In this document: piece by piece, positions 263 through 17,020 of the stretch
Numbering within the stretch: position 1 is the first letter of the stretch
Layout of the letters: the number at the start of each line of letters is the position of its first letter
NCBI GenBank assembly: GCA_963977445.1
Contig: CAXBPH010000126.1
Coordinates: 1 to 19,094, forward strand
DNA from: an uncultured bacterium
GTDB taxonomy: Bacteria > Hydrogenedentota > Hydrogenedentia > Hydrogenedentales > JAEUWI01
Length of the DNA: 19,094 nt
Direction of reading: 5' to 3'
Made by a program: the position numbers and the translations under genes
The notes under the pieces: model-generated
What the model was told of the DNA's origin: nothing
Databases searched by the model: none
The model's input: the letters and a program-made list of their open reading frames with translations, nothing else

Positions 263-305
263 AAAAAAACAAAAAAACACCGAAAAGCAGATGCTTTCCG
301 GTGTT
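263..305 (-). terminator. Intrinsic terminator, probably the original tRNA-Val terminator now displaced beyond attR
   Basis: Inverted repeat AACACCGAAAAGC / GCTTTCCGGTGTT (276-288 / 293-305; one G-U pair on the - strand), with an A-rich run at 263-277 that is the U-tail on -. It lies 13 nt past the duplicated CCA end. Confidence 0.75.
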
Positions 306-315
306 CAATGGTTAT

Positions 316-363
316 AAATGGTGGGCGATACAAGAATCGAACTTGTGACCTCCACGATGTCAA
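316..363 (-). repeat. attR: 48-bp direct repeat, the duplicated 3' part of tRNA-Val
   Basis: AAATGGTGGGCGATACAAGAATCGAACTTGTGACCTCCACGATGTCAA is identical to 10864-10911. Confidence 0.97.
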
Positions 364-419
364 GCCGTATTTATAATAGAACAGTGCGACTATAACCGTA
401 TGGCATGCAACTACTTAGT

Positions 420-448
420 AAGTTAACACACTTTCTCTTCTATTGCAA
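420..448 (-). promoter_or_regulatory. Candidate sigma70 promoter pointing out of the island across attR
   Basis: On -: TTGCAA (448-443), 17 nt, TAACTT (425-420), with a TG extended -10. Confidence 0.4.
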
Positions 449-520
449 GTACCTTATTGCTTTCGGTTAATTTGTAGCGGTTTTCTTCGGTGTGGGGGTA
501 GTGTACCTGACGCTATACTT

Positions 521-1144
521 CTACCAGGCGCGTGATTCATCGCGCCTGATTTTCATTGCTTGACGTCGTCGCGTGTTACGGCCTGGGGAATCTATAGGAG
601 TATTCCCCATATGGTCTGAATGGGCCCACTTCATCGTGCTTGAACTTGTTGACGGCGGGCTGTCTAAAATTTCGACTTCGTCGGCCACTTCCCAAATACG
701 TTCGATAATCGTTTCGCGGTCTGTATTTGGATCAACCTGGTAGTAGGTCGCTAACTTCCGTAATTCTTGAATGGATATACGGTCTAAATCTACCCATTCA
801 TTTTCAGAAGGTAGATCGGGATTCTCTGACTCAGTCCCCGGGGCCTCTGTTGTTGGTAGAGGGCTGGGATTCCCTGACTCAACCTCTGGGACCTCTACTA
901 TCGGGAGAGTGCCGGGATTCCCTGACTCAACCTCTGGGGCCTCTGTTGTGGGTAGAGGGCTGGGATTCCCTGATTCAACCTCTGGGGTCTCTACGATCGA
1001 GAGGGGGCCAGAAGATTGACGCGCTTTGAACGCGTCCCTTCGACAACGATCATTGCAGTATCGCCGACGCCGGCCGGTTTCCGGCTGTTCGAGTGGATTC
1101 TCACAGAATTGACAGCGCCCTGGGGCTATTTTGGGTTCAATCAT
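521..1144 (-). CDS. 207-aa protein: N-terminal Cys4 Zn-finger-like motif, acidic Pro-rich 16-aa repeats, C-terminal HeH/Rho-N-like helical motif
   Basis: Start refined to ATG 1144 (AAGGGA upstream). Motifs: CQFC...GRRRRYCNDRCRR; (PEVESGNPSPLPTTEA)-like x4; LDRISIQELRKLATYYQVDPNTDRETIIERI. Confidence 0.7.
   Translation of the reverse strand: MIEPKIAPGRCQFCENPLEQPETGRRRRYCNDRCRRDAFKARQSSGPLSIVETPEVESGNPSPLPTTEAPEVESGNPGTLPIVEVPEVESGNPSPLPTTEAPGTESENPDLPSENEWVDLDRISIQELRKLATYYQVDPNTDRETIIERIWEVADEVEILDSPPSTSSSTMKWAHSDHMGNTPIDSPGRNTRRRQAMKIRRDESRAW
818..1009. repeat. Coding tandem repeat, 4 x 48 bp, in an ABAB (96-bp) higher-order pattern
   Basis: A GGGATTC(C/T)CTGA(C/T)TCA core starts at 818, 866, 914 and 962. 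Units alternate LPTTEA-type and L(P/S)IVE-type. Confidence 0.92.
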
Positions 1145-1223
1145 AGTTTCGTCCCTTATTTCTAGTTTCGTTTCGTCCCAAGTCGGTGCATGGGGGACTA
1201 ACAGTGCAAGAAGTAGTTGCAGT

Positions 1224-1265
1224 GCGTCGTCCGACCGAACCCTATGCCCCCCGCCCAGAGGACCC
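1224..1265 (-). other. Candidate lambda-like cos packaging site (cosQ plus cosN-like)
   Basis: - strand reads GGGTCCT (1265-1259), 23 nt ending GGGTTCG, then GTCGGACGACGC. Lambda reads GGGTCCT, 23 nt ending GGTTACG, then GGGCGGCGACCT. Confidence 0.5.
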
Positions 1266-1275
1266 ATCCATTTTT

Positions 1276-1341
1276 GGGCCTATTATTGGCCTGTTCATGC
1301 CCTGTTTCGTCCCTATTTTTGCCCTGTTTCAGGCCGATTCC
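1276..1341. repeat. Six degenerate tandem 11-bp units
   Basis: GGGCCTATTAT TGGCCTGTTCA TGCCCTGTTTC GTCCCTATTTT TGCCCTGTTTC AGGCCGATTCC. Confidence 0.8.
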
Positions 1342-1484
1342 AATCTGTGGGCCTGGAATCGCAATCGATAGGGTAGGCCAGATTCCGATAAATGTTACTA
1401 TGCGGAACGTTGCGTATCTCATAAGTATCCAAGCCACAATGCTTTGTGCGGTGTGTCGGGTAACTTAGGACAAAACGACCAACA

Positions 1485-1994
1485 TTAGACCGCTTGCGCT
1501 TCTCCATGAGCCTGCTGGTTCTTCGCCCTGTGGTGCAGGTACTTGAATTTGGAATCTATGGGTAGGTTGTCCTCAGCGAGTTCAATGACAGCCCGGTTCG
1601 TGGGCTTCACACCAAATGTATTATAGGCGTCCATTACTCGCCTGCAGCGAAAAGGTGTACTCTCGCCCAATAGGGAAGCCGACAATTCAGCGAGTTTTTC
1701 TTTCCTCTCCGCATCCGATGATGTGCTTTCACAAATAGCTTTCCAACCGTTTTCTAGGGCAACGCTGGCCCCTGGCTTCGATACGGTAGGCGGTACTATC
1801 GGCGAAATATTACGGGCGGGGCGGCTTCCTGAAAGGGAATCGTAGAGGTCGACCAGGTTGTCAATCTGATCCTGTGTAAGGCGCTCTCGATTAGTCCGGA
1901 AGTAGGTCATCACATCGGCACTATTTGAAAAGCGTGGAAAGCTCAATATCGGCTCGGCGTGTGGGTCTGGTTTATGCTCCTGAAAATGAAACAT
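1485..1994 (-). CDS. Hypothetical protein (169 aa) coupled to the rep gene
   Basis: ATG at 1994 overlaps the rep stop codon (TAATG), so the start is refined from 2066. No family recognised. Confidence 0.7.
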   Translation of the reverse strand: MFHFQEHKPDPHAEPILSFPRFSNSADVMTYFRTNRERLTQDQIDNLVDLYDSLSGSRPARNISPIVPPTVSKPGASVALENGWKAICESTSSDAERKEKLAELSASLLGESTPFRCRRVMDAYNTFGVKPTNRAVIELAEDNLPIDSKFKYLHHRAKNQQAHGEAQAV

Positions 1995-3028
1995 TACGAT
2001 ACAGCCCTCGATGACGTCGGCTTCGGTGGTAAGCTCTTTCCGTAAGGTGCAAGGAATTTTCCGCAAGCACTGGCGATGTATGCACCGGGTTTTTTGAGCC
2101 TCCCAAGATCCTTCGTCCGTCTTGTAGCGTCATCGCCACACTGTTCGGCATAGGTGATTGCTTCAGAAAGCCGATCAAGGCCTCCACAATCAACCATGAG
2201 GCCATAAACCGTTCTCCACCATGGTCGATAGCCTGGGGGGTCAGAGGATGCCTCTAGAAGCCGCTGAAATAGTTCTTTGTTGGCGTGTTCGCGTGGAATC
2301 GTGCCCGGTATGGCCAATACATCTGAAATTGAAACCGCCGATCCCGCCCCGCTATTCGAGTTCGGTGGAGTTGTGGCCACTCTCGGTGATCGGTTGCTTC
2401 TTCCCTGCCCCTGCGAACTCGGTTCGGTAGGGTGGGGTTCGGCATGGTTCGGTAGGGTAGGGTTCGGCTCGGCTCGGCTCGGCTCGGTAGGCGCGTTGGC
2501 GCGCGTCAACGCGCGTTCATTCTCTGGGTAGGGCGTTGACGCCCGAGTAGATAAACTTGAATGATTGTCAGTGGGAATGGCGGAAGGGGGAGGCGGATCG
2601 TTTGGGCATTGCTCTCGCTCAGCGACCATCCTTTTGAAGTCCCGTTCTATAGCGGGCCGGTCTTCTTTTCGTAATTTGGTCAATTTAGGGACGTTACCAC
2701 TTGCGAAGAAACGTCGCTCTTTCGCGAGTCGGTCATGTATGGAATCTTCGCAATGGTCTGACCAATCATGAACAACAATACGGTGTGAGCCGTGCTCATC
2801 AAGCCAACCGCGTTTTAACAGGACTTCGATCAGTTCATCAGGATCAGACTCATACCCGATTGATAGCGCTATTTCCTCGTTGGTAAACTTCCCCAGGTTG
2901 CCTTCAGGGGCGTTAAGGGCTGTGAAGTCCCATAAGTCTTGAAGTAGCCCCTTACCGGCGTATTTGGGAAGCTTGAGATCCCTCAGCATCAACAGAAATT
3001 TAGCTAATCCGTCTGTGCCTTTTTTCAT
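1994..3028 (-). CDS. Phage-type replication initiator / replisome-organiser-like protein (344 aa)
   Basis: N-terminal GLLQDLWDF..NAPEGNLGKFTNEEIA..IGY..DPDELIEVLL..GWLD....VVHDWSDH pattern seen in phage initiators, a central low-complexity linker encoded by DNA repeats (lambda O-like layout), and a small C-terminal domain. Confidence 0.7.
   Translation of the reverse strand: MKKGTDGLAKFLLMLRDLKLPKYAGKGLLQDLWDFTALNAPEGNLGKFTNEEIALSIGYESDPDELIEVLLKRGWLDEHGSHRIVVHDWSDHCEDSIHDRLAKERRFFASGNVPKLTKLRKEDRPAIERDFKRMVAEREQCPNDPPPPSAIPTDNHSSLSTRASTPYPENERALTRANAPTEPSRAEPNPTLPNHAEPHPTEPSSQGQGRSNRSPRVATTPPNSNSGAGSAVSISDVLAIPGTIPREHANKELFQRLLEASSDPPGYRPWWRTVYGLMVDCGGLDRLSEAITYAEQCGDDATRRTKDLGRLKKPGAYIASACGKFLAPYGKSLPPKPTSSRAVS
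2421..2544. repeat. Pentamer array and GC-rich palindromic motifs inside rep (candidate origin)
   Basis: 14 tandem GG(T/C)NN pentamers at 2421-2490, then GCGCGT at 10-bp spacing (2491, 2501, 2511) and GCGTTGRCGC or its complement at 2493, 2503 and 2533. Confidence 0.8.
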
Positions 3029-3057
3029 TTGAGTTTTTCCCTACCGCGTGCTACCAT
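3029..3057 (+). promoter_or_regulatory. Candidate antisense promoter overlapping the rep ribosome-binding region
   Basis: TTGAGT (3029-3034), 17 nt, TACCAT (3052-3057), with a TG extended -10. Confidence 0.55.
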
Positions 3058-3062
3058 GAGCA

Positions 3063-3120
3063 CACTACGTTTGAGTTTTGCCGCCCCAATTCTTCGAAGG
3101 CCTTGGGGTGGCGTTTTTTT
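3063..3120 (+). ncRNA. Candidate ~57-nt antisense RNA against the rep leader
   Basis: Lies between the promoter above and the hairpin GCCGCCCCAA / TTGGGGTGGC (3080-3089 / 3103-3112; the G-U pair works only on +) followed by T7 at 3114-3120. The 5' end is inferred. Confidence 0.5.
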
Positions 3121-4756
3121 AAAGTACTTCTACCGCATTCGCGCGCGCGCCGCCTGGTTGGGCTATAGCACCACCACCTGCCGTATTCTTCGCGATTTCC
3201 TTCAACAGCCGATGGATTTCTGGATCAGCGTTTGAAGACGTAGAAGAAGACGGCGCTTGTGAAGCATTGGCCGTTCCGCCCAAGCTGCTCCGATAGTTTG
3301 AATATTCGTTCTGAGTCATCAAGTGAGGCGGCATCTGGCGATTTCTTACCTCTTCAAGGGTTGTCCCAACATTGAAGGGGCCCGCCAAGATATCAGCAGG
3401 GCTAAACGACGCCCCCCGTTCAGCTCGGGCCATATCGGCGTCTCTCTTCTCAATCCATTTTTGCCGCATCTGGGCGCGAAACATTTCCCCATCCGTCTGA
3501 CTGGCAACAATATCCCGGCCTTCTTCGGCAAAACTTGGGCTAAGTACACCCAACACCTTCCCGCCAAAATCCCCCAGCGGACCAGCCTTGCCTCCAGTAG
3601 ATACAGCGACGTTCGCCGCCCCGAGATTCGCCCGTTTAATCATTTTCGCGTAGAATGATTCTGAAACCACATCATCGGCCAACATGGGCGCATTCTCGAT
3701 AGTGGACTGAATTGCCGTCATGTCACGTGCAAAAAAATGGGCAGGATCTGATAGTCGAGTACGAAGCTTTTCTAAGGCTGTATCGGTTTTCCCTGTAATC
3801 GACTCTAAGTGCTTCATGGATTGGGCAATATCGTCCACCGAATCGGCCATAATATTCGCAGACACAACCGATTCTTTACCGAAAACTTTGGCCATTTGCT
3901 TTCCATTGGTTTCAAAAAGCGTGTCCAACTGCCGAAGCTTATCGATATACGTTCCAGTTAAGGTGATGCCCTTCTCCTGGGCTTCCTGCATGATCAGGAA
4001 GACGTTTCGCATGCCCGTGAAAACCTTCTCAACGGAACCTGCCTTCTTTGTCGCCCCGATGATTGATCCTAAGACTTCATCCATATTTAAGCCCGTCACC
4101 TGGCCGGCAGAAAAGAGCTCCGGGGCGCGTGTGGCCAGGTCTTCAAAGCGGAGTGAGGCTTGCTCTTGGGTATACATTAGTTTGTTTTGTAACTGATTGA
4201 CGTTCGTCACCTCTTTTCCATAAATCTGATAGGCCTTCGTCATCAGGTTTTGCGCGGTCACCAGGTCGCCACCTGTCACCTCAGCGAGCTCGAGAGTCTC
4301 TTTCTTTAAGTCTCCGATTTCCGCAGCGGTCAAATTGCCCGTGTTCGATTTCAAGTCAAATAGGAAACCTGAAATATCCTTCACCCCCGCGCCAAGAGAA
4401 ATAGCCGTGGAGGTGATTTCACGGCGTAAGCCTTGTAGGTTCCCAGCGTTATCTCCAAGGGAAGAAAGGGGCGTCAGAGCCTTTTCAAGCTCCACGCGCT
4501 TCGAAACGAATTGATCTGCCCCTTGGTTGAGACTAGAGAAAACGGTTCCCAAACCTTGAAAACCCGCGTAGCCCGCGATGCTCAAACCTATCTTTTTTCC
4601 CATTTTTTGGAATGATGTACCCAACATGTCTGACTGACGGGAGAGTGCCTTCATATCACTGAGTTGGGCTTTATAGATTTCCTTCACAATGCCACGAGCA
4701 GCCGTAGTATTCCCTGTCGTGAATTCCATTTTTACTTCGGTATCGCCTTTACCCAT
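3119..4756 (-). CDS. Phage tail tape-measure protein (545 aa)
   Basis: Start refined to ATG 4756 (GGAAGG upstream; TAATG overlap with the previous stop). Ala/Gly-rich helical protein with a TP901-type core: LELAEVTGGDLVTAQNLMTKAYQIYG...LRFEDLA...AGQVTGLNMDEVLGSI...FTGMRNVFL. Confidence 0.85.
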   Translation of the reverse strand: MGKGDTEVKMEFTTGNTTAARGIVKEIYKAQLSDMKALSRQSDMLGTSFQKMGKKIGLSIAGYAGFQGLGTVFSSLNQGADQFVSKRVELEKALTPLSSLGDNAGNLQGLRREITSTAISLGAGVKDISGFLFDLKSNTGNLTAAEIGDLKKETLELAEVTGGDLVTAQNLMTKAYQIYGKEVTNVNQLQNKLMYTQEQASLRFEDLATRAPELFSAGQVTGLNMDEVLGSIIGATKKAGSVEKVFTGMRNVFLIMQEAQEKGITLTGTYIDKLRQLDTLFETNGKQMAKVFGKESVVSANIMADSVDDIAQSMKHLESITGKTDTALEKLRTRLSDPAHFFARDMTAIQSTIENAPMLADDVVSESFYAKMIKRANLGAANVAVSTGGKAGPLGDFGGKVLGVLSPSFAEEGRDIVASQTDGEMFRAQMRQKWIEKRDADMARAERGASFSPADILAGPFNVGTTLEEVRNRQMPPHLMTQNEYSNYRSSLGGTANASQAPSSSTSSNADPEIHRLLKEIAKNTAGGGAIAQPGGARANAVEVL

Positions 4757-4977
4757 TATTCGGTTTCCTTCCAAACTTGCGCGATGAATTTACCGAGTCC
4801 AAAACGATGACGGCCGTTCCTGCAGCTCTTGCAAAATTGGTTTACCTGGTCGATTTTCGAGCTCAAAAGGATCAAGATTCTTTGTATGCTTAGAAGCCAA
4901 CTCAGCGGAATCATGAAAGTAACCCGGTCACCAATAGGGAGGCCCCTCGAGGCGTTCCAGCGTTGAATGAGGCCCAT
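4756..4977 (-). CDS. Small hypothetical protein (73 aa) directly upstream of the tape measure
   Basis: ATG 4977 lies 1 nt after the DUF1580-like stop, and its TAA overlaps the tape-measure ATG, so it fills the gap exactly. Confidence 0.55.
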   Translation of the reverse strand: MGLIQRWNASRGLPIGDRVTFMIPLSWLLSIQRILILLSSKIDQVNQFCKSCRNGRHRFGLGKFIAQVWKETE

Positions 4978-4978
4978 A

Positions 4979-5311
4979 TCACATACCCAAATCTTGAAGT
5001 TTACGGTGGGCGGTTTCGGCGGCTTCAGTTCGTTGTCGGTCGGTCCGTGGCACAGGTAATTGGATGGGATTTCTGGAAGAACTTCGCAGCCTGAAATAGG
5101 CGGCGTCGGCGGCTTTGAGTTCGTCAAAAAAATCGTTTACATCTTTGTCAGCAACAAGAATTCGCCGCCCGCAACGAATATGTTTCAAGTGAATTCGGTC
5201 ACCTGATTTGACTTGGAGGCCTTCCCGACACCAACGCCATAAGGATTGTGGCGATGTTTTGACAGGGATATCGCGGGCAACTTGGGCTAACGTTCTATAT
5301 TCTTCGATCAT
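4979..5311 (-). CDS. DUF1580-like winged-HTH protein (excisionase/AlpA-like)
   Basis: TLAQVARDIP..TSPQSLWRWCREGL......IHLKHIRCGRRILV..KDVNDFF and a C-terminal RQRTEAAETAHRKLQDLG helix; AGGAG RBS. Confidence 0.75.
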   Translation of the reverse strand: MIEEYRTLAQVARDIPVKTSPQSLWRWCREGLQVKSGDRIHLKHIRCGRRILVADKDVNDFFDELKAADAAYFRLRSSSRNPIQLPVPRTDRQRTEAAETAHRKLQDLGM

Positions 5312-5369
5312 AAGTAATACTCCTAGTGGTTAAATAATTCGCTTCGATTGAATCATCACATTGTTTTCC

Positions 5370-5407
5370 AAAATGGCCCCCGCCGCGCCCAATGATGCGC
5401 GGCGGGG
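5370..5407 (-). terminator. GC-rich hairpin after the capsid gene (terminator or mRNA stabiliser)
   Basis: Perfect 11-bp stem CCCCGCCGCGC / GCGCGGCGGGG (5378-5388 / 5397-5407); only a short U-run on -. Confidence 0.55.
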
Positions 5408-5435
5408 TAGGGGCACCAACTTATAGGCTTAAAGC

Positions 5436-6542
5436 CTACTGCCCGAAGCTTCCCCACACCGCGCGGGGATCCAGGCGGGTACCGCCAAAAACGTGTTTAA
5501 CCTTCCAAGTGAGCACATCGGTCTGAATGCGTTTGATATCGCGGGCATCTGGGGCGCTTACCTGGGGAGCGTCGTAGCCCACCAAGGTCCCAAACTCACC
5601 GGCTGGAATATTGGCGGGGTCGGTGAACAGTGACCAGCACGTCGAACCAATGGTGCCAGATGTCGAAAGGACAGGGATCCAAGGATTAACCAGAAGTTTG
5701 ATTCCGAGATCCGACAGAACATTCTTTGTCCCGTGCGATTCTGCGACACCTGGGCCACTTCCAGACCCATCAACCACATGGTTAAGACTGATCGAGTTCA
5801 GCAATTGCATTGCCTTGATCATGAGCCCAGGTCCCACCATCAGGAATTTCGGCATGGAAATGATCGGGTCACCTTCGGTGTCGGTGTAACCAAGCATTTG
5901 TCCTACTGCTGTGGCCAAGTTATCTATCGTCAGAGGTAGGCTACTGGGCCCACTTGGTTGCGCACTATAAAAGGCATCAATTGGGCCACCAGCATCGAAA
6001 AACAAAGAGGTCATGAAGGCCTCCTCACTCCGCAGCGCGCCTCTGACCATACGTTCTGGAAGCGTATTAAAAACCCCTACCGGGTCATTGGTGATGGATT
6101 CCTCGGTGGCCTCAAAAAGCGCCCCGTGCTTACCCACAAAATAACGTTCGGTCTGTTCTTGCGACACGGTTATCTGTGGATATTCGCCATTCTCTTTGAC
6201 GAGCGGCAAGGTCGATTCAGCGCCTTCGAAGCGAGTCGCTTCGACGGAATTATAGTTCGGGATATTTTTGCGGGTGCGCACCACCGACTTCATCACTGAA
6301 GACGAATGGCGATAGAGGGTCTGCATTTGGCGCGCTGCGACATCGGCGATTAATACAGAGGCACTGCCTGTCGTAGTGGCGAATTGCCGAATTCTATCGG
6401 CTCGGCGCGCGGGGTCTCCGCAATCGCCCCATAAGACGTTGCTTGTCGCGGTCAGTTCGGCTTCAGAATGACATCGGCTTCGGCGGGAATCTTCCAGCGC
6501 CCAACCTTGGGAAAGATCAATTATAGTGGGTTCGTTTCTCAA
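5436..6542 (-). CDS. Major capsid protein, Mu gpT-like (HK97 fold), 368 aa
   Basis: VKENGEYP; KHGALFEATEESITND.VGVF..LP..M.RGA.RSEE; PKFLMVGPGL..KA.QLLNS; WSLFTDP; GTLVGYDAPQV; DVLTWKVKHVFGG..LDPR. Confidence 0.88.
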   Translation of the reverse strand: MRNEPTIIDLSQGWALEDSRRSRCHSEAELTATSNVLWGDCGDPARRADRIRQFATTTGSASVLIADVAARQMQTLYRHSSSVMKSVVRTRKNIPNYNSVEATRFEGAESTLPLVKENGEYPQITVSQEQTERYFVGKHGALFEATEESITNDPVGVFNTLPERMVRGALRSEEAFMTSLFFDAGGPIDAFYSAQPSGPSSLPLTIDNLATAVGQMLGYTDTEGDPIISMPKFLMVGPGLMIKAMQLLNSISLNHVVDGSGSGPGVAESHGTKNVLSDLGIKLLVNPWIPVLSTSGTIGSTCWSLFTDPANIPAGEFGTLVGYDAPQVSAPDARDIKRIQTDVLTWKVKHVFGGTRLDPRAVWGSFGQ

Positions 6543-6553
6543 GTAGAGATCTC

Positions 6554-6982
6554 CTAGAGGGTCAAAAGTTTGATGGGTATGTTGGCGGCGGTGGCAGAGC
6601 CCGACAATGCCGCCAGGGCAATTCCATATGGTGTATGGCCAGTGGTCGCATCGAGGGAGATAACACCGGTTGAGTCGTCAATATAGAGGGTTGCACCCAT
6701 GACGACGTTCGCGGTCGAATCATCATCACTTGCCACGACGGGTAGGGTGAAAATTCCGCAAGTTTGGATTACACAATCCGCGCCCACACCGCTTGGTGGA
6801 GTAACACAAATCCCTGTGAAACCACCAGCGACGACGACGGGATCGTAGATTTCAACCGGCGAATTGGGCGCGGTCAACGCGGATTCAGGGACCGTGATTA
6901 ATGACCCGCCCTGGCTCGGGGCTGGACTGTGTTCATAACCAGCCGCAAGGCCGGTCGGGTACATGGTTTTGGGGTATCCCAT
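6554..6982 (-). CDS. DUF2190-like capsid decoration/cement protein
   Basis: PVVVAG..TGICVT...GADCVIQTCGIFTLP...VMGATLYIDD...TT...PYGIALAA.....IPIKL; lies between the protease and capsid genes. ATG 6982 chosen for AGGAG spacing; TTG 6991 is possible. Confidence 0.78.
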   Translation of the reverse strand: MGYPKTMYPTGLAAGYEHSPAPSQGGSLITVPESALTAPNSPVEIYDPVVVAGGFTGICVTPPSGVGADCVIQTCGIFTLPVVASDDDSTANVVMGATLYIDDSTGVISLDATTGHTPYGIALAALSGSATAANIPIKLLTL

Positions 6983-6987
6983 TTTTT

Positions 6988-8001
6988 TCAATCTCCTGTG
7001 TGGGCGGCTTCTTCCGCCATTTTTTGGGCCTGTTCTTCGCTGTAGCCCTGGCTCAAGAATCGACGAAGAAATGATTCTTTCAAAGTCTCGCCGCCCTGGC
7101 TAAACTCGCCGCCCATGGGTTCCACGTTCTTAATATCAATCGCCGCCGATGTGGCCTCCAGCAATTCCATCTGGTGAAGCTTGTTGATACGTTCAAATTC
7201 TTTGTCGGATCGCTCGATCACTTGTTCAAGAAAATTCACCACCTGGCAACCACTAGCGATGGCCTCCAAAGCAACTTCTTGCAAATGAGCTTTACCACGA
7301 GAAAACTTGACAATATAAGCAACGCGATCCTTTTCGGTGGCGGGATCGGCGGGTTCAAGTTCGGATGTATTGGCCATCCCAAGGAGTTTTGCTTGGTGGC
7401 TCAGGACGCCCTGTGCGTGGGTGACGAATCCAGGATCTGTCAGCGCCTTTTTAAGGTCGACCATCGTTCTCGAATCGAGATTGACCCCTTTGGGGAGTTC
7501 ACCAAAAAGACCATCAGTAGCGGCTGGATCGTCAACAATATCGACCGCGTGCAAAGCATCAACACGACATAGGCGATATGAGACTTTATCTTCATCTTCA
7601 ACTCTTTCGGATTCCACGGTAGAGATGGAGACTGAAGCGCCCAGTAGACCCGGGTCAGACTTAGCGACGGACAAGATATGGTCTTTCGCGGTTTTCGGTG
7701 CCGCATCGGACCAGTGCAAATCGGCTACTACGACATCACCCGAACGGCGAAAGTCCTTAAATCGCCCCAGTGCGGTTCCAAACCCAGGCGAACAAATGTT
7801 CGGGTGATTGGCGCGGCATTTCACACCCTGGGGTGAAGCGTTGCCCAGGTCAATGACCTGGTCAAGGGTGGTTTCATCGATCATCAGATCGTGACCCCGC
7901 GCCTTGCCCATCGCGATAACGTGGACACCCTTCAAAACATCTATGTCACCGGTGATGACGGTGCCTTTAAGGGCCGGTGTTTCCAGGGTAAGTTCAGCCA
8001 T
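6988..8001 (-). CDS. Prohead maturation protease with a C-terminal scaffold-like region (337 aa)
   Basis: GVHVIAMGKARGHDLMIDETTL; GVKCRANHP (candidate catalytic His); LGRFKDFRR.GDVVVADLH; LGASVS (candidate catalytic Ser); LHAVDIVDDPAA; acidic helical C-terminal half; position before the decoration and capsid genes. Confidence 0.78.
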   Translation of the reverse strand: MAELTLETPALKGTVITGDIDVLKGVHVIAMGKARGHDLMIDETTLDQVIDLGNASPQGVKCRANHPNICSPGFGTALGRFKDFRRSGDVVVADLHWSDAAPKTAKDHILSVAKSDPGLLGASVSISTVESERVEDEDKVSYRLCRVDALHAVDIVDDPAATDGLFGELPKGVNLDSRTMVDLKKALTDPGFVTHAQGVLSHQAKLLGMANTSELEPADPATEKDRVAYIVKFSRGKAHLQEVALEAIASGCQVVNFLEQVIERSDKEFERINKLHQMELLEATSAAIDIKNVEPMGGEFSQGGETLKESFLRRFLSQGYSEEQAQKMAEEAAHTGD

Positions 8002-8698
8002 CAGTCAGGGCCTTAAGAGCCTGCGCGGCGATTTTGCGTTCTTCTTTCGACAGGTACAGATCGCCAGATAATTCATTGAGGCGTTCAAGATCATTGTTTT
8101 TGATGGCTTGATTCAGGTAGCGCCGATGCGAAGCGATAGTTTGTGTGATGGCATCGGGGCGGCTGGTAAAGGGAGGGAGGGGGCAGAGACGGTATCCAAT
8201 AGCATCCCAAAAGTCAATCCAACCCTTCGGGCCACAAGTTGAGCCTAGGGCAAACAGAGCTTGATCCAAAAGGTCCAGTTCTTGAGAATTCACAGCTTGA
8301 AGATTGTCCATAAATTCAGTGGATGTTTCTTTGATTACCCAAGTGTCAACCCAATCAATAATTGCCGCATAAACCTCGTGGCGACGAATATTAGTTAGGA
8401 TATGGGGCTGAATGGGTTTGGTCCCTGCTTCAATCCCAATTAATGTGGCCCTGTGACACCCAAGTATTACCGCGAAACCATCTTGGGTGTATCCCATTGC
8501 TTGACGCAATAGTTTGACCCGCAATGCTACGTGCGCTAATGAGTGTTTGAGTTTGTCGTGGATGGAGAACTTAACCCCATCATCCCCCTCTATCGGGGAA
8601 GTTTTCTTGGGTCGTGGAACGTTCATAGAGTCCAGTTTGCAGAACCCCTTGTACCACAATTCGGGATTAGGTGGGCAGAGTAGATATTCTATTCTCAA
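7994..8698 (-). CDS. XRE-family HTH regulator with an unknown C-terminal domain (234 aa)
   Basis: RVKLLRQAMGYTQDGFAVILGCHRATLIGIEAGTKPI; overlaps the protease start by 8 nt. The start codon is uncertain. Confidence 0.75.
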   Translation of the reverse strand: MRIEYLLCPPNPELWYKGFCKLDSMNVPRPKKTSPIEGDDGVKFSIHDKLKHSLAHVALRVKLLRQAMGYTQDGFAVILGCHRATLIGIEAGTKPIQPHILTNIRRHEVYAAIIDWVDTWVIKETSTEFMDNLQAVNSQELDLLDQALFALGSTCGPKGWIDFWDAIGYRLCPLPPFTSRPDAITQTIASHRRYLNQAIKNNDLERLNELSGDLYLSKEERKIAAQALKALTDG

Positions 8699-8784
8699 GT
8701 TCTATTCTCCAGTTGTGAGTTTTGGAATGTTTCTAAATGTCGTTTAGAAGACACATCCAGGTGGCGTTTCTGAGTTATGACTGG

Positions 8785-8813
8785 AGTGTATCACGAATGT
8801 AGATAACGTACAA
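8785..8813 (-). promoter_or_regulatory. Candidate sigma70 promoter of the xre-head operon
   Basis: On -: TTGTAC (8813-8808), 17 nt, TACACT (8790-8785), with a TG extended -10. Confidence 0.6.
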
Positions 8814-8875
8814 GAGCAGGAAACATCACATTTAGTGCAAGAAATATCATATTTCAGGGCTATTGGGTGTTTTCG

Positions 8876-8917
8876 AAACAAAAAAAGGACAGATCCAATC
8901 TATAAGAGGATCTGTCC
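8876..8917 (-). terminator. Intrinsic terminator insulating the xre-head operon from upstream transcription
   Basis: Perfect 10-bp stem GGACAGATCC / GGATCTGTCC (8887-8896 / 8908-8917) with an A-rich run at 8876-8886 (U-tail on -). Confidence 0.7.
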
Positions 8918-9137
8918 CGTAGCGGTGCGTGGGAACTATGGCAATCGTTTCCCTGAAGTATCAGGAAGTGTGGTGTGTGTTCTATAGTGTCCGATTGAAC
9001 ATTCGAGTATTGAGTTAGAAATTCCATAATCATCCCTAATCTATTAGGAATGCAACTGGCAATCAGGTATGTAGTCCCCTTGGTTTTCGACTATAATAGG
9101 GGATACGGCTCTCTGCATCACGTTGCATTCGAGTCCA

Positions 9138-9180
9138 GGTCCCCCACGGTGTTGGCGCACTGTGGGGGACCGTCTTTTTT
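9138..9180 (+). terminator. + strand intrinsic terminator, the end of a candidate small RNA
   Basis: 14-bp stem GGTCCCCCACGGTG / CACTGTGGGGGACC (G-U pair on +) followed by GTCTTTTTT; no U-tail on -. Confidence 0.65.
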
Positions 9181-9562
9181 AGGCGGTCTGGGTGCCACCT
9201 ACCCCGAAGAACCTGGCAAATACTTGGGCCAGGGCATCTTCAGAGGGAGCTGGTGGGAGTGATTCTTCTAATATCGATGACGATAACCGTTCGTCCATCA
9301 GTTCCATTGGGGATTTGCCGGCCAAGTCTTCACCTTTCGTGTATATCTTGCTCCAGAAGTGGTGAACTGTAGAGCCGTTGGGCAGTATGTCGAGAGATAG
9401 GATCACGTCATCAAGATCGCAATGACCAGAAAATAGGGCCCCTGAAGGGTAATTGATGGTGTATTGGAAACTTCTATTGTGTCCCATGAAGATATTCCTT
9501 CTGTTCGGGTTTCCGACTCCGCTAGGAGAAGTCGATACAAAATCCGGTGCCCCAGTGGCCAC
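9179..9562 (-). CDS. Hypothetical protein (up to 127 aa) downstream of the integrase
   Basis: Fills the space after int on the same strand. No family recognised; the start may be the internal Met (MGHNRSF). Confidence 0.55.
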   Translation of the reverse strand: MATGAPDFVSTSPSGVGNPNRRNIFMGHNRSFQYTINYPSGALFSGHCDLDDVILSLDILPNGSTVHHFWSKIYTKGEDLAGKSPMELMDERLSSSILEESLPPAPSEDALAQVFARFFGVGGTQTA

Positions 9563-9590
9563 GGTCTATGGTTTTACTCACGTATCCTAA

Positions 9591-10751
9591 TTATCCGAGC
9601 TCTTGGGCTATTTGTATGGCTAACTCGGTATTCTTTTCGGCGTAGAGCTCGGTGGTGTTGATTCGGCTATGCCCCAGCGCAACGGAGGCTTCGATACCGG
9701 AAATCTTGCGCACTTCGGTGGCGTGGTTGTGACGTAGGCGATGGGGGTGCCAACGGGGCACCTTGGCGGCGTCACATGCGCGGCGGACTGCTCGAGCGTA
9801 TGAATCCTTGTCGTAATGGTCGCGGACTACGCGGGCGGTTTGGCGGGTATCGGCCTTTTGATTTGGGCGGCGATGGGTTCGGGCTTGGGACTTTTGTTCT
9901 GTGATGGCGTCCCGGGGACTAAACAGGTAACTGGAAATGGGTCTATCATTCAGAAAGGGCCGGATCACCTCTTGGGCTTTCGGCCCCATATAGAGGGTCC
10001 GTGTCTTTCCGTGATGAGCCGTCTTGTGTCTGCCCAGGTGGACTATCCATATCGCTTGCTCCGTGTTGATATCAATAGGACGTAAAAACACTACTTCAGA
10101 GCTTCGGGCACCCGTCAATAGTTGGAGTTGAATCAATGCCCATATTTGGCGGGATACATGATCCTTAATAGCGTGTACGTGGTCCAGGGGCACAGGTAGC
10201 ACCCTTTTGGGCTCTTTCGCTTGCGACCGCCCCGCTCGAAGCCCTTCGACCGTGGACAATGCCTGGTATACAGCGGGGCCGATCAACTCCTCAGAGACCG
10301 CCCAACGGAAGATCTTTTTCACTTCCCCTGTATAGTCGTTGATAGTCTTCCTGGCTAACCCTCGATTGATCCATGTCTCTCGAAGTGCTTTCAGGGATAG
10401 GGGGGAGAAGTCAGCCGCTTCGATATCGCCGTAAATTTTGCGCACATCGGCAATTACGAGCTTTACCCGGTCCAGAGATCGGGCCGCGTTGCCCTCTGGA
10501 GTTCTGTACCACTGTTCGGCGTGGTTCCAATAGCGGGCAAGAACTTCCACCACCAAAACCCCATCATCCTGGCGAAGGGGTAGGGCCCGACCAGAAGCAA
10601 GCCATTCGGACAAAGTCCGGTCATACTTCATTTGGGCAGAAGATGTGCCATACTTGCCCAAATAGACACGTTTTCCGGAAAGATTTACATAGGCTTGCCC
10701 GCTGGCCTTGTGTAATCGGATGGTGGGTATGTTTTTTTTGCTAAAAAGCAT
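9591..10751 (-). CDS. int: Tyrosine recombinase/integrase (386 aa)
   Basis: Catalytic set R (TGARSSE), K (HKT), H-x-x-R (HRLRH), H (LGH), Y (TELYA); N-terminal arm-binding-type region HKASGQAYVNLSGKRVYLGKYG; adjacent to the att/tRNA. Confidence 0.96.
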   Translation of the reverse strand: MLFSKKNIPTIRLHKASGQAYVNLSGKRVYLGKYGTSSAQMKYDRTLSEWLASGRALPLRQDDGVLVVEVLARYWNHAEQWYRTPEGNAARSLDRVKLVIADVRKIYGDIEAADFSPLSLKALRETWINRGLARKTINDYTGEVKKIFRWAVSEELIGPAVYQALSTVEGLRAGRSQAKEPKRVLPVPLDHVHAIKDHVSRQIWALIQLQLLTGARSSEVVFLRPIDINTEQAIWIVHLGRHKTAHHGKTRTLYMGPKAQEVIRPFLNDRPISSYLFSPRDAITEQKSQARTHRRPNQKADTRQTARVVRDHYDKDSYARAVRRACDAAKVPRWHPHRLRHNHATEVRKISGIEASVALGHSRINTTELYAEKNTELAIQIAQELG

Positions 10752-10753
10752 AA

Positions 10754-10820
10754 AGGCGGTGCGACTCCAAGGGTGATCCGGGTATGTACCCGGAATTGTC
10801 CTTTTTGTGTCGCACCGCCT
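10754..10820. promoter_or_regulatory. Long nested inverted repeat abutting the int start codon
   Basis: AGGCGGTGCGAC / GTCGCACCGCCT (10754-10765 / 10809-10820) enclosing TCCGGGTA / TACCCGGA (10777-10784 / 10787-10794). Confidence 0.7.
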
Positions 10821-10863
10821 ATTAGCGGGAAACCAATCTAAGTGATTGATTCGACTTGGTTTA

Positions 10864-10911
10864 AAATGGTGGGCGATACAAGAATCGAACTTGTGACCTC
10901 CACGATGTCAA
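10864..10911 (-). repeat. attL: 48-bp direct repeat covering the tRNA-Val 3' part
   Basis: Identical to 316-363. Confidence 0.97.
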
Positions 10912-10943
10912 CGTGGCGCTCTAACCAACTGAGCTAACCGCCC
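10867..10943 (-). tRNA. tRNA-Val (GAC)
   Basis: GGGCGGTTAGCTCAGTTGGTTAGAGCGCCACGTTGACATCGTGGAGGTCACAAGTTCGATTCTTGTATCGCCCACCA: full cloverleaf, anticodon GAC, encoded CCA. Confidence 0.98.
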
Positions 10944-11016
10944 TTAAATTTTTCGGGGAACTGAATGTCTCAGTCACGCCCTTCCCAATCAGGCTTACGC
11001 CTCAATCGGGAGCCGA

Positions 11017-11046
11017 ATAGTAGCAAAACAGCCGGGGCTGTGTCAA
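11017..11046 (-). promoter_or_regulatory. tRNA promoter
   Basis: On -: TTGACA (11046-11041), 18 nt, TACTAT (11022-11017), TG extension, GC-rich discriminator. Confidence 0.7.
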
Positions 11047-11051
11047 CGGTA

Positions 11052-11810
11052 TTACCCCTTGTTTGCTACCAAATCAAAGGTAATGCGTACTTCGTCTTTT
11101 ACCAGGTCATTGCCCCAACCCGTGTCGGTCATGCCCCAGTCACTGCGCAGCAGTGCGAAGTCAGCGGTGGTCTTCAGGGTGTCGCCATCTATTTCGATGG
11201 TGGCGGGGAAGGTGATGTTGCTGGTAACGCCACGGACGAGAAGCTCGCCGGCGACGTCGTAGCCTTCATCGGTCTTCGTAACAGACTTGGAGGTGAACGT
11301 CGCACCAGGGAATTCTTTGGTGTTGAACCAATTCACGGTCTGGAGGTTTTCGGTCAACATGGAAGCCGTGGTGAAGAGGGAGGTCATGTCGAAATTGATC
11401 GTGATCTGGGACGTCTCGATGTTGCCATCGGTGACGACAACGGAGCCGCTGAAATCACCCCAGCTACCCTGCTGGTTGCCGGTTATCTTGTAGCCGGTGA
11501 AACTGAGCGTGCTGTCGTCATTGGGCTCAATAACGTAGGTTACCGGACCGGCGACGGCAGGGGCTGCCTCAGGGGCGGGTGTCACTTCAGGAGCGGGGGT
11601 AGCGGCAGGCGCTTCTTCTTTCGGCATTTCTTCGGCAGGCACGGCTTCTACGGCCGGGGCCGCGTCGACGGGTGCAGCTTCTTCTTTAGCAGGCGCAGCT
11701 TCGCTCTTCACAACTTTAAGTTCTTCAGGCGGGGCGGTTTCGCTGCAACCGGGAAGGATGGCGAGCATGGCGACGAGGGTCAGCGCGGTGATTGTGCTCA
11801 TGTATTTCAT
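11052..11810 (-). CDS. YceI-family lipoprotein with a Pro/Ala/Glu-rich linker
   Basis: Start refined to ATG 11810 (GGAG RBS). Lipobox LPGC; STLSFTG; LTENLQTVNWFNTKEFPGATFTS; GELLVRGVT; LLRSDWGM; VKDEVRITFDL. Confidence 0.88.
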   Translation of the reverse strand: MKYMSTITALTLVAMLAILPGCSETAPPEELKVVKSEAAPAKEEAAPVDAAPAVEAVPAEEMPKEEAPAATPAPEVTPAPEAAPAVAGPVTYVIEPNDDSTLSFTGYKITGNQQGSWGDFSGSVVVTDGNIETSQITINFDMTSLFTTASMLTENLQTVNWFNTKEFPGATFTSKSVTKTDEGYDVAGELLVRGVTSNITFPATIEIDGDTLKTTADFALLRSDWGMTDTGWGNDLVKDEVRITFDLVANKG

Positions 11811-11930
11811 ATCGATTCTCCGTTCCAAGACACACGAGGTGTGTCTGAGGTGTGATGTGATGTTTGGGGGTTGCTATTAATTCGCGACCAGAATCCGGGA
11901 GCCGAATGCGTGGGTGCGAAAGCTCTGGAA

Positions 11931-11966
11931 GCCTTCACCGGGCCAAGAGGGCGGCCCGGTGAAGGC
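11931..11966. repeat. Perfect 14-bp inverted repeat after the oxidoreductase gene
   Basis: GCCTTCACCGGGCC / GGCCCGGTGAAGGC with no U-tail; an mRNA-stabilising or REP-like hairpin. Confidence 0.6.
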
Positions 11967-11982
11967 GCATATAGAAATGATA

Positions 11983-13545
11983 CTAGGCTTTAGCGGGCTC
12001 TTCCATGGGAAGGTCCATAGCCTGGACGTCTTTATCGTAGTCAATGGCACTGGGCGTTTCGAAGTCGAACTCGGACCATGCGGGATCGATTTCCACGACA
12101 CCACCGGTTTTCGAAGCGATGCGGGCCGAAACCGACACGATCGTTGCGTCAAGGCCAACCATTTCGTTCGTGCGGGGCTTCACGCCACTCTTCACACACT
12201 CGGCGAAGGCATTGAACTGGTGCACGTCGGCCGTGGTTTCGGAACCAACCGCAGCAAAGAGCTGGGCACCATCGACAGCGGAGTTACCCAATTTACGGCT
12301 GAGACCGGAGCTGATCTTGTAGGCTTCCCGTTCGGCCTTGGACATTTCCTTGGTTTCTTCGGCGAAGGCGTCGAGGATGGCCTGCTTTTCAGCTTTCTCT
12401 TCATCAGAGAGGGGCGTTGCCCATGGTTCCTGGGTAAACCAGCAACCGTCGGCTTCGGTCAAATCTATAGCGGCTTTGTCGCCCATGAAGGTTTCACCCG
12501 CACCGCGTTTCGCATTCGCGAGGATGCTGGAGTAGAAGCAACGAACCGTGTAAGGCTTGTTGATCTTATTGAAGTCCTGATACTCGTTCCGGCCGTCGAT
12601 GTTGATGAAGGTACCTTCCTTGCGGCTGATATCATAGTCATACATGACGGAGATGTTGTCGGCAACCGTACGGCCGTCGCGCCAGTAATCCGTACCGGCC
12701 GTGCAATACACACGGGAGGGCAGGGTGCCCGCAAACCAGTTGGCAATGTCCACCGAGTGGGTAAGCAGTTCGGTGAAGAGACCGCCGGAAGTCTCTTCAT
12801 AGAGACGCCAGTTGAGATGGTGGTCCAGATCGGTTTTGATGAACTGTTTTTCCATGTCATTGTAGACATAGTCGGTGTCAATTACACGACGACCAGCCGC
12901 ATTACGGTGCCACTGCATTTCCATGTGGTTGATACGGCCGAGCCAGTTTTCTTCTTTGAAACGCTTCATGGCCAGGTTGTAATTGGGGTTGTAGCGGCGC
13001 TGGTGGCCCACTTGCACAAAAAGGCCCTTCTCATTGGCCTTCTTGACGATGTCCCGTGCATGCTCAATCTCAAAACACATGGTCTTTTCGCAGAAGACGT
13101 AAAGACCCTGGTCGAGGGCATACATGGTGGGTTCGTAGTGCTGGGTAAGGCCCGTGGCGATAATTACCGCGTCGAGCTCTTCCTTTTCAATCATTTCTTT
13201 GTAGTCGTAGTAGGCCGTCGGCTTGGTGACGGCTTTCAGCTTGGCCATCTGCTCGGGAGTCGGCTTGCCGCCTTCGAGGGTGACCTGGGCATTGGCGAGC
13301 CAGCCGCGAAGGGCGCCGCCCTTCTGGTGGGGCTCGTAGACGTCGGCCACGGCCACTACGTCAATCTGGTCTGCACCCCAGATACCATCACCCAGGTGGA
13401 AGTTACCCTGACCACCGGTACCGATACAACCAACGCGTACCTTTTCGTTTTGTGCGTAAGACAACGGGTTATACCCCGTTGCAATCGCTACACCAGCGGT
13501 AGCACCCGCCGCCTTCATGAAATTACGACGCGTAACTTCGTTCAT
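11983..13545 (-). CDS. Tat-exported Gfo/Idh/MocA-family oxidoreductase (520 aa)
   Basis: TRRNFMK twin-arginine motif; RVGCIGTGGQG Rossmann motif; VFCEKTM; QVGHQRRY; NWRLY..TSGGLFTELLTHSVDIANW. Confidence 0.92.
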   Translation of the reverse strand: MNEVTRRNFMKAAGATAGVAIATGYNPLSYAQNEKVRVGCIGTGGQGNFHLGDGIWGADQIDVVAVADVYEPHQKGGALRGWLANAQVTLEGGKPTPEQMAKLKAVTKPTAYYDYKEMIEKEELDAVIIATGLTQHYEPTMYALDQGLYVFCEKTMCFEIEHARDIVKKANEKGLFVQVGHQRRYNPNYNLAMKRFKEENWLGRINHMEMQWHRNAAGRRVIDTDYVYNDMEKQFIKTDLDHHLNWRLYEETSGGLFTELLTHSVDIANWFAGTLPSRVYCTAGTDYWRDGRTVADNISVMYDYDISRKEGTFINIDGRNEYQDFNKINKPYTVRCFYSSILANAKRGAGETFMGDKAAIDLTEADGCWFTQEPWATPLSDEEKAEKQAILDAFAEETKEMSKAEREAYKISSGLSRKLGNSAVDGAQLFAAVGSETTADVHQFNAFAECVKSGVKPRTNEMVGLDATIVSVSARIASKTGGVVEIDPAWSEFDFETPSAIDYDKDVQAMDLPMEEPAKA

Positions 13546-14059
13546 GACTTCTCCTTTTCAATGCGAGACTGATCTTCGCAACGGTTTGGGTTGGCCCGCG
13601 AGTTGGCCCAGTCTTCGGGGGAGTTCGGCGGGCGGACCGGGCGTGCTGCCGCGGCCGCTTACTGCAATATCTGTTGAAACAAACAATCCCGAGCATTGAG
13701 GCCTCGTCTGCCTAAGCAGGTGATGCCTCAAGTCTCGATCATCTGAAATCTGATGGAGGTCAAGAGGGCAAAGAACTGCGACTCTAGCTTTACGTCATTT
13801 TGTAAACTCCAACATCTCAATTATAGGGCGCGAAAGGCGGCCCTGTCCAGTTCTTCTAACGGTACGTAAACAGACCTTTTCCAAGCCCGGGAGGATTATT
13901 CGCCCTTCGTATCCATCGTTATAACGATTGGGCAAGGATCTTGACAGTTTATGGCCGATATTTCCCCGCGCATTAAGAAAAATCGCAAAATACCCACCGA
14001 ATCGCCGCAGCAATTCGATGGGTACATGGTTTGCTCTGTTTTGGAACGTCTGTCCGGAG

Positions 14060-14599: not shown

Positions 14600-15148
14600 T
14601 AGGGGTTTCTCCGTTCCGATAACTATTATTGAGGTCGCTTCAAAGTTGGACCTCCGCACGCATATATATCTTATTTCGATGAATAGTTCCAACTATTTTT
14701 TATGCTTCAGAATAAAATGGACAAAACCGGACGTGTCAGCCGACGGAATCGCGGGTTTTCTCCACAATTTCCTGCTCCCTCCCCAGGGGGCGTCTCACAG
14801 GTCCCACAAGTCTTTTACCCTGCCACGCCCGCCGCTGCGCCCGACCACTTCATGAATCCCCGTCGTGTAAATTTCTTCATGCAATTCCCCTTTTTCGAAC
14901 GTGGTGTCCCTTTAAATCAACTATAACGTTCGAGATGGGGGATTGGCAGCGGGACTGTCATCTTTCCCGCCCCAGGCGGGAAAGGGACTGTACCGGCAGT
15001 ACGACACGGCGTCGAGTCAACGCCAGTCTCTATCGTTCCCACTGAAAAAGCAGTCCCGGTGTCGCGGGGCGCCTTCTTCGGGGGTACAGGCTCCCGCCTC
15101 AGGCGCGTCTTCGACCCTCGATTCTTGCCACGTAACTGAGAAACGGCA

Positions 15149-16906: not shown

Positions 16907-17020
16907 ATTCCCATCCTCCGTGCGTGAACCGTTTCTGCTTATCTAACGTTTGGAAGGTGAGCCTTGTTCGATCTAATTGCTCCGGACTTACAAAAAGGAT
17001 ACAGCAGACGGCACTACGGG

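Follow-up and report, generated by a model that had tools for sequence, protein, structure and literature searches.

A tRNA-Integrated 10.5-kb Element of the Hydrogenedentota Encoding Its Own Shell and Tape Measure, a Probable Helper-Dependent Phage Satellite

Location and Boundaries of the Element

The stretch of DNA analyzed here (the window, 19,094 nt) is one entire contig, CAXBPH010000126.1, of the 7.1-Mb draft genome of an uncultured bacterium of the phylum Hydrogenedentota (GenBank assembly GCA_963977445.1, denoted G000), and it harbors an integrated element which encodes a phage-type capsid and a tail tape-measure protein of its own and which is very probably a phage satellite of some kind. 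The element lies between two direct repeats of 55 nt, 96% identical and spaced by 10,548 nt, the second of which overlaps the 3′ end of a tRNA-Val(GAC) gene, and the GC content between the repeats is 51.2%, as against 56.4% genome-wide. The integration site was checked at seven loci taken from eight other genomes of the genus, six of which carry tRNA-Val(GAC) with the same YceI-side flank, the seventh being a paralogous tRNA. In five of these six relatives the tRNA runs straight into sequence matching window positions 267–363, that is, an empty site, and at the sixth locus element genes adjoining tRNA-Val(GAC) were not found; the site is without the element in all six. The description of a complete att-bounded element of 10.5 kb, given in an earlier note made from the sequence, is thereby borne out, as is its description of co-oriented, uninterrupted and overlapping or abutting genes: all element genes lie on the minus strand with 0 internal stops, and the spacings between adjacent genes include −8, −4, 11, 1, and −1 nt. 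An Rfam scan returned tRNAs only, and the counts of promoters and terminators were no better than chance.

Genes of the Element

The open reading frames (ORFs) were annotated with Pfam, PHROGs, and NCBIfam (Table 1) and were compared with their counterparts in two related elements, from genomes G064 and G065 of the same genus. The integrase, XRE-type regulator, decoration protein, tape measure and replication protein named in the earlier note were all recovered by library matches, as was the Xis/AlpA-like helix-turn-helix (HTH) protein. Its call of a protease with a scaffold-like part holds as well: the window copy has no library match, but the G065 copy matches phrog_15531 (“head maturation protease”) at 1.7e-6, and residues H66, S123, and D157, which we take to be the prohead-protease triad, are invariant across the three copies. 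For the major capsid protein the assignment as a capsid stands, whereas the label “Mu gpT-like” is weak (PF10124 at only 0.004). A separate label of the earlier note, DUF1580, is matched in the G064 copy alone (4e-4). The predicted structure of the capsid protein had a mean pLDDT of 38 and was not used. In viral genomes, a portal gene adjoins the distant relative of the protease, with the protease behind the portal, in 97 of 104 loci rows (duplicates included); three of the remaining seven are without upstream DNA, and four, judged by eye, resemble full phages of other types.

The tape-measure protein has a homologue (E 8e-54) in a prophage fragment of genome G119, and it is judged to be genuine because this homologue comes after tube and chaperone-sized genes, in a tube–chaperone–tape-measure operon; with 545 aa it is not shorter than the tape measures of prophages of the same phylum (481, 549, and 550 aa), which bears on the conjecture of the earlier note that the shell and tail ruler of the element would set the dimensions of the virion. 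The small ORF coupled to its start (the pre-tape-measure ORF) shows no homology with library or chaperone profiles, or with profiles from related phages, and gained no support as a gpT-like chaperone (hhalign probability 0.2%, structure-atlas matches <0.9). The XRE protein was likewise not supported as a cryptic small terminase (TerS), in that Foldseek, VIA-align, and the atlas returned XRE/HTH_3 regulators only; its model has a pLDDT of 63, and the best fold match (Z 8.0) spans 63 residues, with the C-terminal part barely covered. Searches of solved structures with four alignments gave nothing significant.

The replication protein is 35.5% identical over 183 aa to that of a prophage in genome G079, and short repeats within its gene (2421–2470) are a possible origin. 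The 169-aa ORF that follows has no family match and does not align to the G064 ORF at the same place. The starts of the tape-measure (4756), Zn/SAP (1144), and 169-aa (1994) frames lie downstream of the longest-ORF starts. A 79-aa ORF over the cos-like site, as well as 5′ extensions of the Zn/SAP and pre-tape-measure ORFs, were rejected, as they score no better than other frames. Within the Zn/SAP gene, four 48-nt tandem copies (817–1008) encode a 16-aa acidic, proline-rich linker. A 42-nt inverted repeat (2307–2348 and 7339–7380, 90% complementary) links the rep linker to the protease-gene linker; self-comparisons of the G064 and G065 elements show no counterpart.

Table 1. Features of the element in the window, listed from the tRNA end to the distal end
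Feature	Position	Strand	Evidence
att repeat (10857–10911) inside intact tRNA-Val(GAC) (10867–10943)	10857–10943	−	repeat comparison, tRNA calls
Tyrosine integrase	9591–10751	−	PF00589 1e-14, phrog_1 3e-36
127-aa ORF, function unknown, not conserved	9179–9562	−	no family match; frame outscores other frames
XRE-type HTH, probable regulator; overlaps protease start (own start possibly to 8698)	7994–8626	−	HTH_3 2e-4; 3/3 elements
Prohead protease with C-terminal scaffold-like region	6988–8001	−	invariant H66/S123/D157; phrog_15531 on G065 copy
Capsid decoration (cement) protein	6554–6991	−	PF09956 3.9e-10, phrog_122
Major capsid protein, Phage_capsid_4 family	5436–6542	−	PF25209 1e-31
Excisionase/AlpA-like HTH	4979–5311	−	phrog_66 0.001; homologues beside other G000 integrases
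Conserved 60–73-aa ORF coupled to tape-measure start (tail-chaperone position)	4756–4977	−	3/3 elements
Tape-measure protein of the tail (545 aa) with a PGG-x-N motif conserved at the C-terminus	3119–4756	−	PF10145 1.3e-9
Replication initiator/replisome organizer	1994–3028	−	phrog_9474 1.2e-13
169-aa ORF, function unknown, start overlaps rep stop, not conserved	1485–1994	−	frame outscores other frames
Lambda-type cos-like site	1224–1265	−	heptamer, spacer, 12-mer matrix score
207-aa four-cysteine zinc finger with 16-aa repeats and SAP-like domain (Zn/SAP protein)	521–1144	−	3/3 elements; SAP PF02037 4.9e-5 on G064 copy
att direct repeat, tRNA-Val 3′-end copy, distal boundary	309–363		repeat comparison and empty sites

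Packaging and Tail Genes

The earlier note had recognized no large terminase (TerL), portal, connector, tail tube, baseplate, or lysis gene, and this is confirmed by two kinds of search. No ORF of the three elements has a match to a terminase, portal, connector/neck, tube, baseplate, or lysis family in the three libraries, and 23 terminase, portal, neck, and tail profiles built from phages with related proteases or capsids, eight of them single-sequence profiles, gave nothing at E ≤ 0.01 in the six frames of the three elements (best E 0.021). The same profile set matches prophages of the phylum (portal 1e-58, TerS 1.6e-14, tube 1e-27). The ORFs of the window without an assignment are 73–207 aa long, as compared with 417–659 aa for the TerL and portal proteins of the compared phages, and the only conserved ORF left as a candidate head–tail adaptor or connector is the pre-tape-measure ORF. 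On this gene content, the terminase, portal, tail tube, and lysis genes are judged to be absent between the att repeats in all three elements, which thus do not represent autonomous temperate phages.

A Lambda-Type cos-like Site

A feature absent from the earlier account is a cos-like site on the minus strand, formed by the heptamer GGGTCCT (1265–1259), a G-rich spacer of 23 nt, and a cosN-like 12-mer (1235–1224). The heptamer is presumably cosQ; lambda has an identical one, which stops 23 nt short of the right end. CosQ is described as a conserved 7-bp termination site (PMC4669245). In 23 of 27 related phage loci, the heptamer is found at most 4.6 kb ahead of TerL, with 24 sites in 117.5 kb on the upstream side versus 6 in 344 kb on the downstream side, and the 12-mer of the window matches one of the phage sites (L048) at 10 of 12 positions and the lambda cohesive end at 6 of 12. 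With a matrix trained only on phage sites (16 of 20 distinct sites), the window site takes first place among the 1,388 candidates of the G000 genome, with a score of 10.4 versus 2.5 for the second, and its score was reached by 0 of 4,208 simulated sequences.

Each of the three elements contains exactly one GGGTCC(T/C) on the coding strand, in non-coding DNA directly before the Zn/SAP gene, and in the G065 element the site and this gene have been relocated together. Counted from the 12-mer, the putative cohesive end, the Zn/SAP gene starts at bp 92 (81 in G064 and 162 in G065), and TerS of the G079 prophage at bp 91; the corresponding positions of N15 terS and of the rpp gene of a phage-inducible chromosomal island (PICI) are given as bp 89 and 102, respectively (PMC9026076). 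The exact cos pattern occurs in IMG/VR in 17 stretches, 15 of which are copies of one coding-like sequence and two are unrelated, and none lies near a terminase; a degenerate pattern run over 135 genomes finds only G000 and G065, misses G064 and G079, and is uninformative, as a reversed control matches four genomes. The site at 1265–1224 is likely the DNA-packaging signal of the element. The position of the Zn/SAP protein after this site, together with its restricted distribution (seven homologous proteins found), makes it a candidate packaging-redirection factor in the place of Rpp or TerS.

Related Elements and Selection

Among the genomes of the class and phylum, matches to the capsid (6 of 133), tape measure (4 of 135), and protease (5 of 135) coincide only in G000, G064, and G065, that is, in three of the nine genomes of the genus. 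The G064 element measures 10,105 nt between 54-nt repeats at tRNA-Pro and has the gene order of the window element. The G065 element, of about 11,130 nt (delimited by means of a 17-nt repeat that contains a single mismatch), has a different integrase with an Arm domain and an O-like initiator with a DnaC-like loader, the replication module being placed upstream, and apparently lies within one of the eight occurrences of a host repeat in that genome. The three elements, each at a different att site and between them with two types of integrase and of replication module, have in common the same missing genes and the same core, which consists of the HTH, protease-scaffold, decoration, capsid, small ORF, tape-measure, and Zn/SAP genes.

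The head and tape-measure proteins are 38–69% identical among the three elements, and no frame is broken. The proportion of synonymous differences (pS 0.58–0.90) exceeds that of nonsynonymous ones (pN 0.26–0.58) in all 24 gene pairs, and dN/dS is 0.06–0.50 in 12 of them, with dS saturated in the other 12. By these measures, the elements are regarded as intact and under purifying selection. The earlier note had named as the opposite outcome close homologues confined to full-length prophages and a dN/dS near 1; both complete close relatives share the reduced layout.

Protein searches yielded six capsid relatives at 61–69% identity, 17 tape measures whose alignments cover the greater part of the profile and which mostly end in PGG-x-N, and a tight group of protease relatives. 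Equal longest-contig sizes, namely, 8,967 (capsid and tape measure), 11,518 (protease and tape measure), and 7,982 (protease and Zn/SAP), hint that these relatives share contigs, and together the searches suggest that more family members exist beyond the three elements. In IMG/VR, no members were found with the tape-measure queries or a single capsid query, and with alignments of capsid and protease only distant relatives came up, in none of which the layout of the element is present; the tape measure has no match in GenBank phages or plasmids. In the capsid tree, the family forms a clade of 7 of 43 rows (support 100/100, stem 1.06), and the context is known for three of the seven, none of them in a full phage. 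The tape-measure clade is weaker (20 of 40 rows, support 86/93; built on 36 of 150 listed proteins).

Two observations touch on the reach of the family. In the complete genome G067, of the same genus, a 3-kb island (10485–13507 of locus L013) between 92-nt repeats at tRNA-Leu starts with a frameshifted 3′ capsid fragment (about 60% identity) and is either a decayed fourth member or a captured piece. Proteases of 368–385 aa (P0184–P0192) constitute a sister group with a longer scaffold and a different C-terminus, and as one of them shares its longest-contig size with a family tape measure, this suggests a subfamily with another capsid type.

Comparison with Known Satellites

The claim of the earlier note that the element fits no described satellite logic was too strong, since PICIs with capsid, decoration, and cos genes as well as satellites with tape measures are known; what stands is that the element departs from each family tested. 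According to the published descriptions, 21 of 29 reference PICIs have a capsid gene of their own (PMC10111431), and EcCICFT073 carries a capsid gene, a head-decoration gene, and cos, with no terS (PMC6092414). The head-side logic of the element (capsid, decoration, cos, no portal) is that of the Gram-negative PICIs. Satellite tape measures are already known, in print 2025–26, from the PICI-like elements (PLEs) of Vibrio cholerae and some capsid-forming PICIs (cf-PICIs; PMC12987554) as well as from the EPIPs of Mycolicibacterium aichiense (preprint PMC12822802). The best reading of the class is that of a cos-packaged, PICI-like satellite that would supply its own shell and tail ruler.

With the Gram-negative cos-type PICIs (EcCICFT073, PmCI172, fis/HE-PICIs), the element shares a size of 10–11 kb, an integrase, unidirectional genes, an AlpA/xis-like HTH, its own replicon, capsid and decoration genes, and a cosQ–cosN site followed by a DNA-binding gene (cos–rpp), with no TerL or portal. 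In contrast to them, it adds a protease-scaffold and a tape measure, belongs to another phylum, has a replication gene of the phage replisome-organizer type rather than a primase, and carries after cos the Zn/SAP gene instead of that of a winged-helix Rpp. When the SatelliteFinder definition of PICIs (PMC10085698) is applied, an integrase and capsid-morphogenesis genes (PF25209, PF09956) are present; for the regulator (alpA, merR, or stl), the element gives phrog_66 at 0.001, HTH_17 at 0.02, and HTH_3 at 2e-4 and no Phage_AlpA match. In place of a primase-replicase, with no primase match, there is the phrog_9474 initiator, or the O-like and DnaC-like pair in G065, and in place of a TerS or Rpp, with no TerS match, the Zn/SAP gene at the position after cos. 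Tail genes are forbidden by the definition, and PF10145 scores above its cut-off in all three elements, this point being judged by gene type and not from the 80 forbidden profiles.

For P4-like satellites, we take Sid, Psu, Delta, and the alpha primase-helicase to be the markers, and no ORF of any of the elements has a Pfam or PHROG match to these. The EPIPs, which measure about 11 kb, resemble the element in having a scaffold, a major capsid, and a tape measure but no tail or lysis genes (PMC12822802; capsid is in its gene inventory, yet the same text says that capsid proteins are lacking). Compared by description only, they differ in having TerS, a head–tail adaptor, a stopper, and a serine integrase, none of which was found in the element, which has a protease, a decoration protein, a tyrosine integrase (in 3/3), and a lambda-type cos-like site. 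The EPIPs are further characterized by induction of a resident helper prophage. The PLEs likewise have a tape measure with a small neighboring gene, and their hybrid tails have been demonstrated by experiment (PMC12987554); PLEs remodel ICP1 capsids, use a myovirus tail, and reside in Vibrio, and the pre-tape-measure ORF lacks homology to the chaperone profiles tried. The cf-PICIs share an own capsid and protease, and for some a tape measure is putatively assigned (legend to Extended Data Fig. 10, PMC12987554), but they encode TerS, TerL, portal, head–tail adaptor, and connector (PMC10085698), none of which was found here. Portal-less HK97 “twilight” mini-genomes of 5–11.6 kb also combine integrase, capsid, and scaffold in the absence of terminase, portal, and connector, a tape-measure ORF occurs in one of them, and a satellite lifestyle is proposed for them (PMC13669383); they are, however, described as gut-sample genomes with encapsulin-like capsids and mostly no tail gene, as opposed to the tape measure, decoration protein, and cos-like site of the element core.

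In the literature covered, which included PMC12409344 and 10.1101/2025.02.15.638363 in part and had most subscription papers outside its scope, no family was found that joins protease-scaffold, decoration, capsid, tape measure, and cos with no terminase or portal, nor any description of satellites in this phylum; the gene maps of Extended Data Fig. 10, the EPIP supplement, and the mini-genome tables may show this layout.

Candidate Helper Phages

Prophages of the expected helper type, with a GpA terminase, a lambda-type portal, and tape measures of 481–549 aa, are present in genomes G079 and G059. Their protease belongs to phrog_53, unlike that of the element (the G079 capsid is phrog_1005), and the shell of the element would therefore need to work with a portal foreign to it. 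The G119 prophage is not supported as a helper, its tape measure being a long branch outside the clade. In G059 and G079, a tail module of tube, chaperone, and short tape measure (L185–L188) has no PHROG match, and G067 carries two HK97-type portal genes (L197, L198), which represent resident prophages or cf-PICI-like elements.

Flanking Genes and Other Islands

The host flank (11052–19051) encodes a YceI-like lipoprotein, a Tat-exported GFO/IDH/MocA oxidoreductase, an OmpA/Pal protein, an unknown protein of 585 aa, and an Nramp-like transporter that shares one frame with an ApbE flavin transferase. Elsewhere in G000, four further tRNA-integrated islands (L167–L170, on contigs C136, C108, C56, and C288) have related integrases (38–50%), two of which carry xis-like HTH and primase genes with no virion gene and no cos score, that is, minimal satellite-like islands; a fifth related integrase lies on contig C93.

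Proposed Mechanism and Alternative Explanations

The reading favored here, at a probability of about two in three, is that of a helper-dependent satellite which builds hybrid particles: an own shell, tape measure, and packaging signal, with no recognizable motor, portal, or tube, make particles completed with helper parts the most likely arrangement. The element, which carries a replication gene of its own, has been integrated by a tyrosine integrase at the 3′ end of a tRNA gene, and according to this model infection by a lambda-type siphovirus with a GpA terminase would lead to its excision and replication by its own means. The scaffold and capsid of the element would then assemble a small shell for 10–11 kb around the helper portal, following which the helper TerL would cut at the element cos, probably directed there by the Zn/SAP protein in an Rpp-like role, and helper tube, tip, and neck proteins would assemble on the element tape measure, in the manner of PLEs. 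The siphovirus would lend the terminase, portal, neck, tube, tip, and lysis functions, and the acceptance of a foreign portal by the shell would be the boldest step.

It has to be noted that a number of points weigh against this model. It is read from gene content, with only three family members of known context; single-sequence profiles among the 23, together with four ORFs without assignment, bear on the absence of the packaging and tail genes. The support for the cos-like site is uneven, as the G064 site scores 7.8 (reached by 6 of 4,089 simulations) and the G065 site −3.9 (152 of 3,858), nhmmer gave nothing significant (E about 4), and the matrix was built from related phages after the resemblance had been noticed. 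A low score is compatible with a real site, since the site of the same type 91 bp before terS in the G079 prophage scores −3.8, as low as G065. The nearest capsid relatives belong to phages whose portal is of another type (phrog_10963) and in which no comparable cos score is seen, and shell and cos therefore point to different phage groups. No resident helper was found: a GpA terminase is encoded by 12 of the 135 phylum genomes and by none of the nine of the genus, PF05136 and PF04860 portals are missing from G000, G064, and G065 (drafts 93–95% complete), and the terminase and portal families tried have no member in G000; from the distribution of GpA, the helper is probably an infecting phage. 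An extension of the hybrid-particle model, which is tentative and rather doubtful, holds that the element represents a distinct family, with an own complete shell on a foreign helper portal, a hybrid tail templated on its own tape measure, helper terminase recruited to cos via a Zn-finger/SAP protein unrelated to TerS or Rpp, and a shell of a different lineage than cos and portal, in which case that difference of lineage would make the shell–portal coupling far looser than assumed.

A satellite could also use its capsid module and tape measure mainly as decoys that interfere with the helper, its DNA traveling via cos in ordinary helper particles, possibly as concatemers. This would agree with EcCICFT073, whose capsid and decoration genes are reported as dispensable and whose DNA is packaged in full-size heads (PMC6092414, PMC10111431), which also speaks against hybrid particles, and with a tape-measure length that equals that of local prophages and implies no size change; it is nevertheless unlikely, since it is not obvious why a decoy should combine a conserved protease triad with a scaffold and a cement protein, all three elements stay at 10–11 kb as if limited by a small head, and PLE tape measures are described as entering virions and being required for transfer (PMC12987554). 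Improbable, too, is a portal-less shell system or host-serving island, such as an encapsulin-like compartment or an anti-phage decoy with no helper packaging: tail-less HK97 mini-genomes with integrase and scaffold, one having a tape-measure ORF, are on record (PMC13669383), but the cos-like site, the tape measure, and the changing att sites favor movement between cells in tailed particles, the library search gave no encapsulin match for the capsid, the element is present in only 3/9 genomes of the genus, and PADLOC returned one generic HTH match and one marginal BrxB match only.

That the elements are decaying deletion remnants of ordinary prophages is the least credible explanation, and a very unlikely one given their size of 10.1–11.1 kb, their intactness, and the purifying selection. 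Every gene family has relatives in full phages, the frameshifted capsid fragment beside the tRNA-Leu repeat of G067 indicates that such elements decay, and purifying selection could precede the deletion; yet the same deletions would be needed three times, at different sites, in elements with 38–69% identical head and tape-measure proteins, coupled junctions, and no broken gene, and the capsid clade, with its long stem (1.06), has no full-phage member among the 3/7 with known context. The satellite reading of the earlier note is thus supported, with the reduced layout repeated in both complete relatives and no sign of the contrary case.

Significance

As a rule, portal and capsid derive from one and the same phage and evolve in concert, and the element makes the adoption of a foreign portal by a satellite shell directly testable. 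The Zn/SAP protein is a candidate for a new class of terminase-redirecting proteins, and the element offers a second system, outside Vibrio, in which to ask why satellites keep a tape measure of their own. Such elements have probably been filed as defective prophages, because current satellite finders treat tail genes as forbidden. With them, satellites would extend to a poorly studied, largely uncultured phylum.

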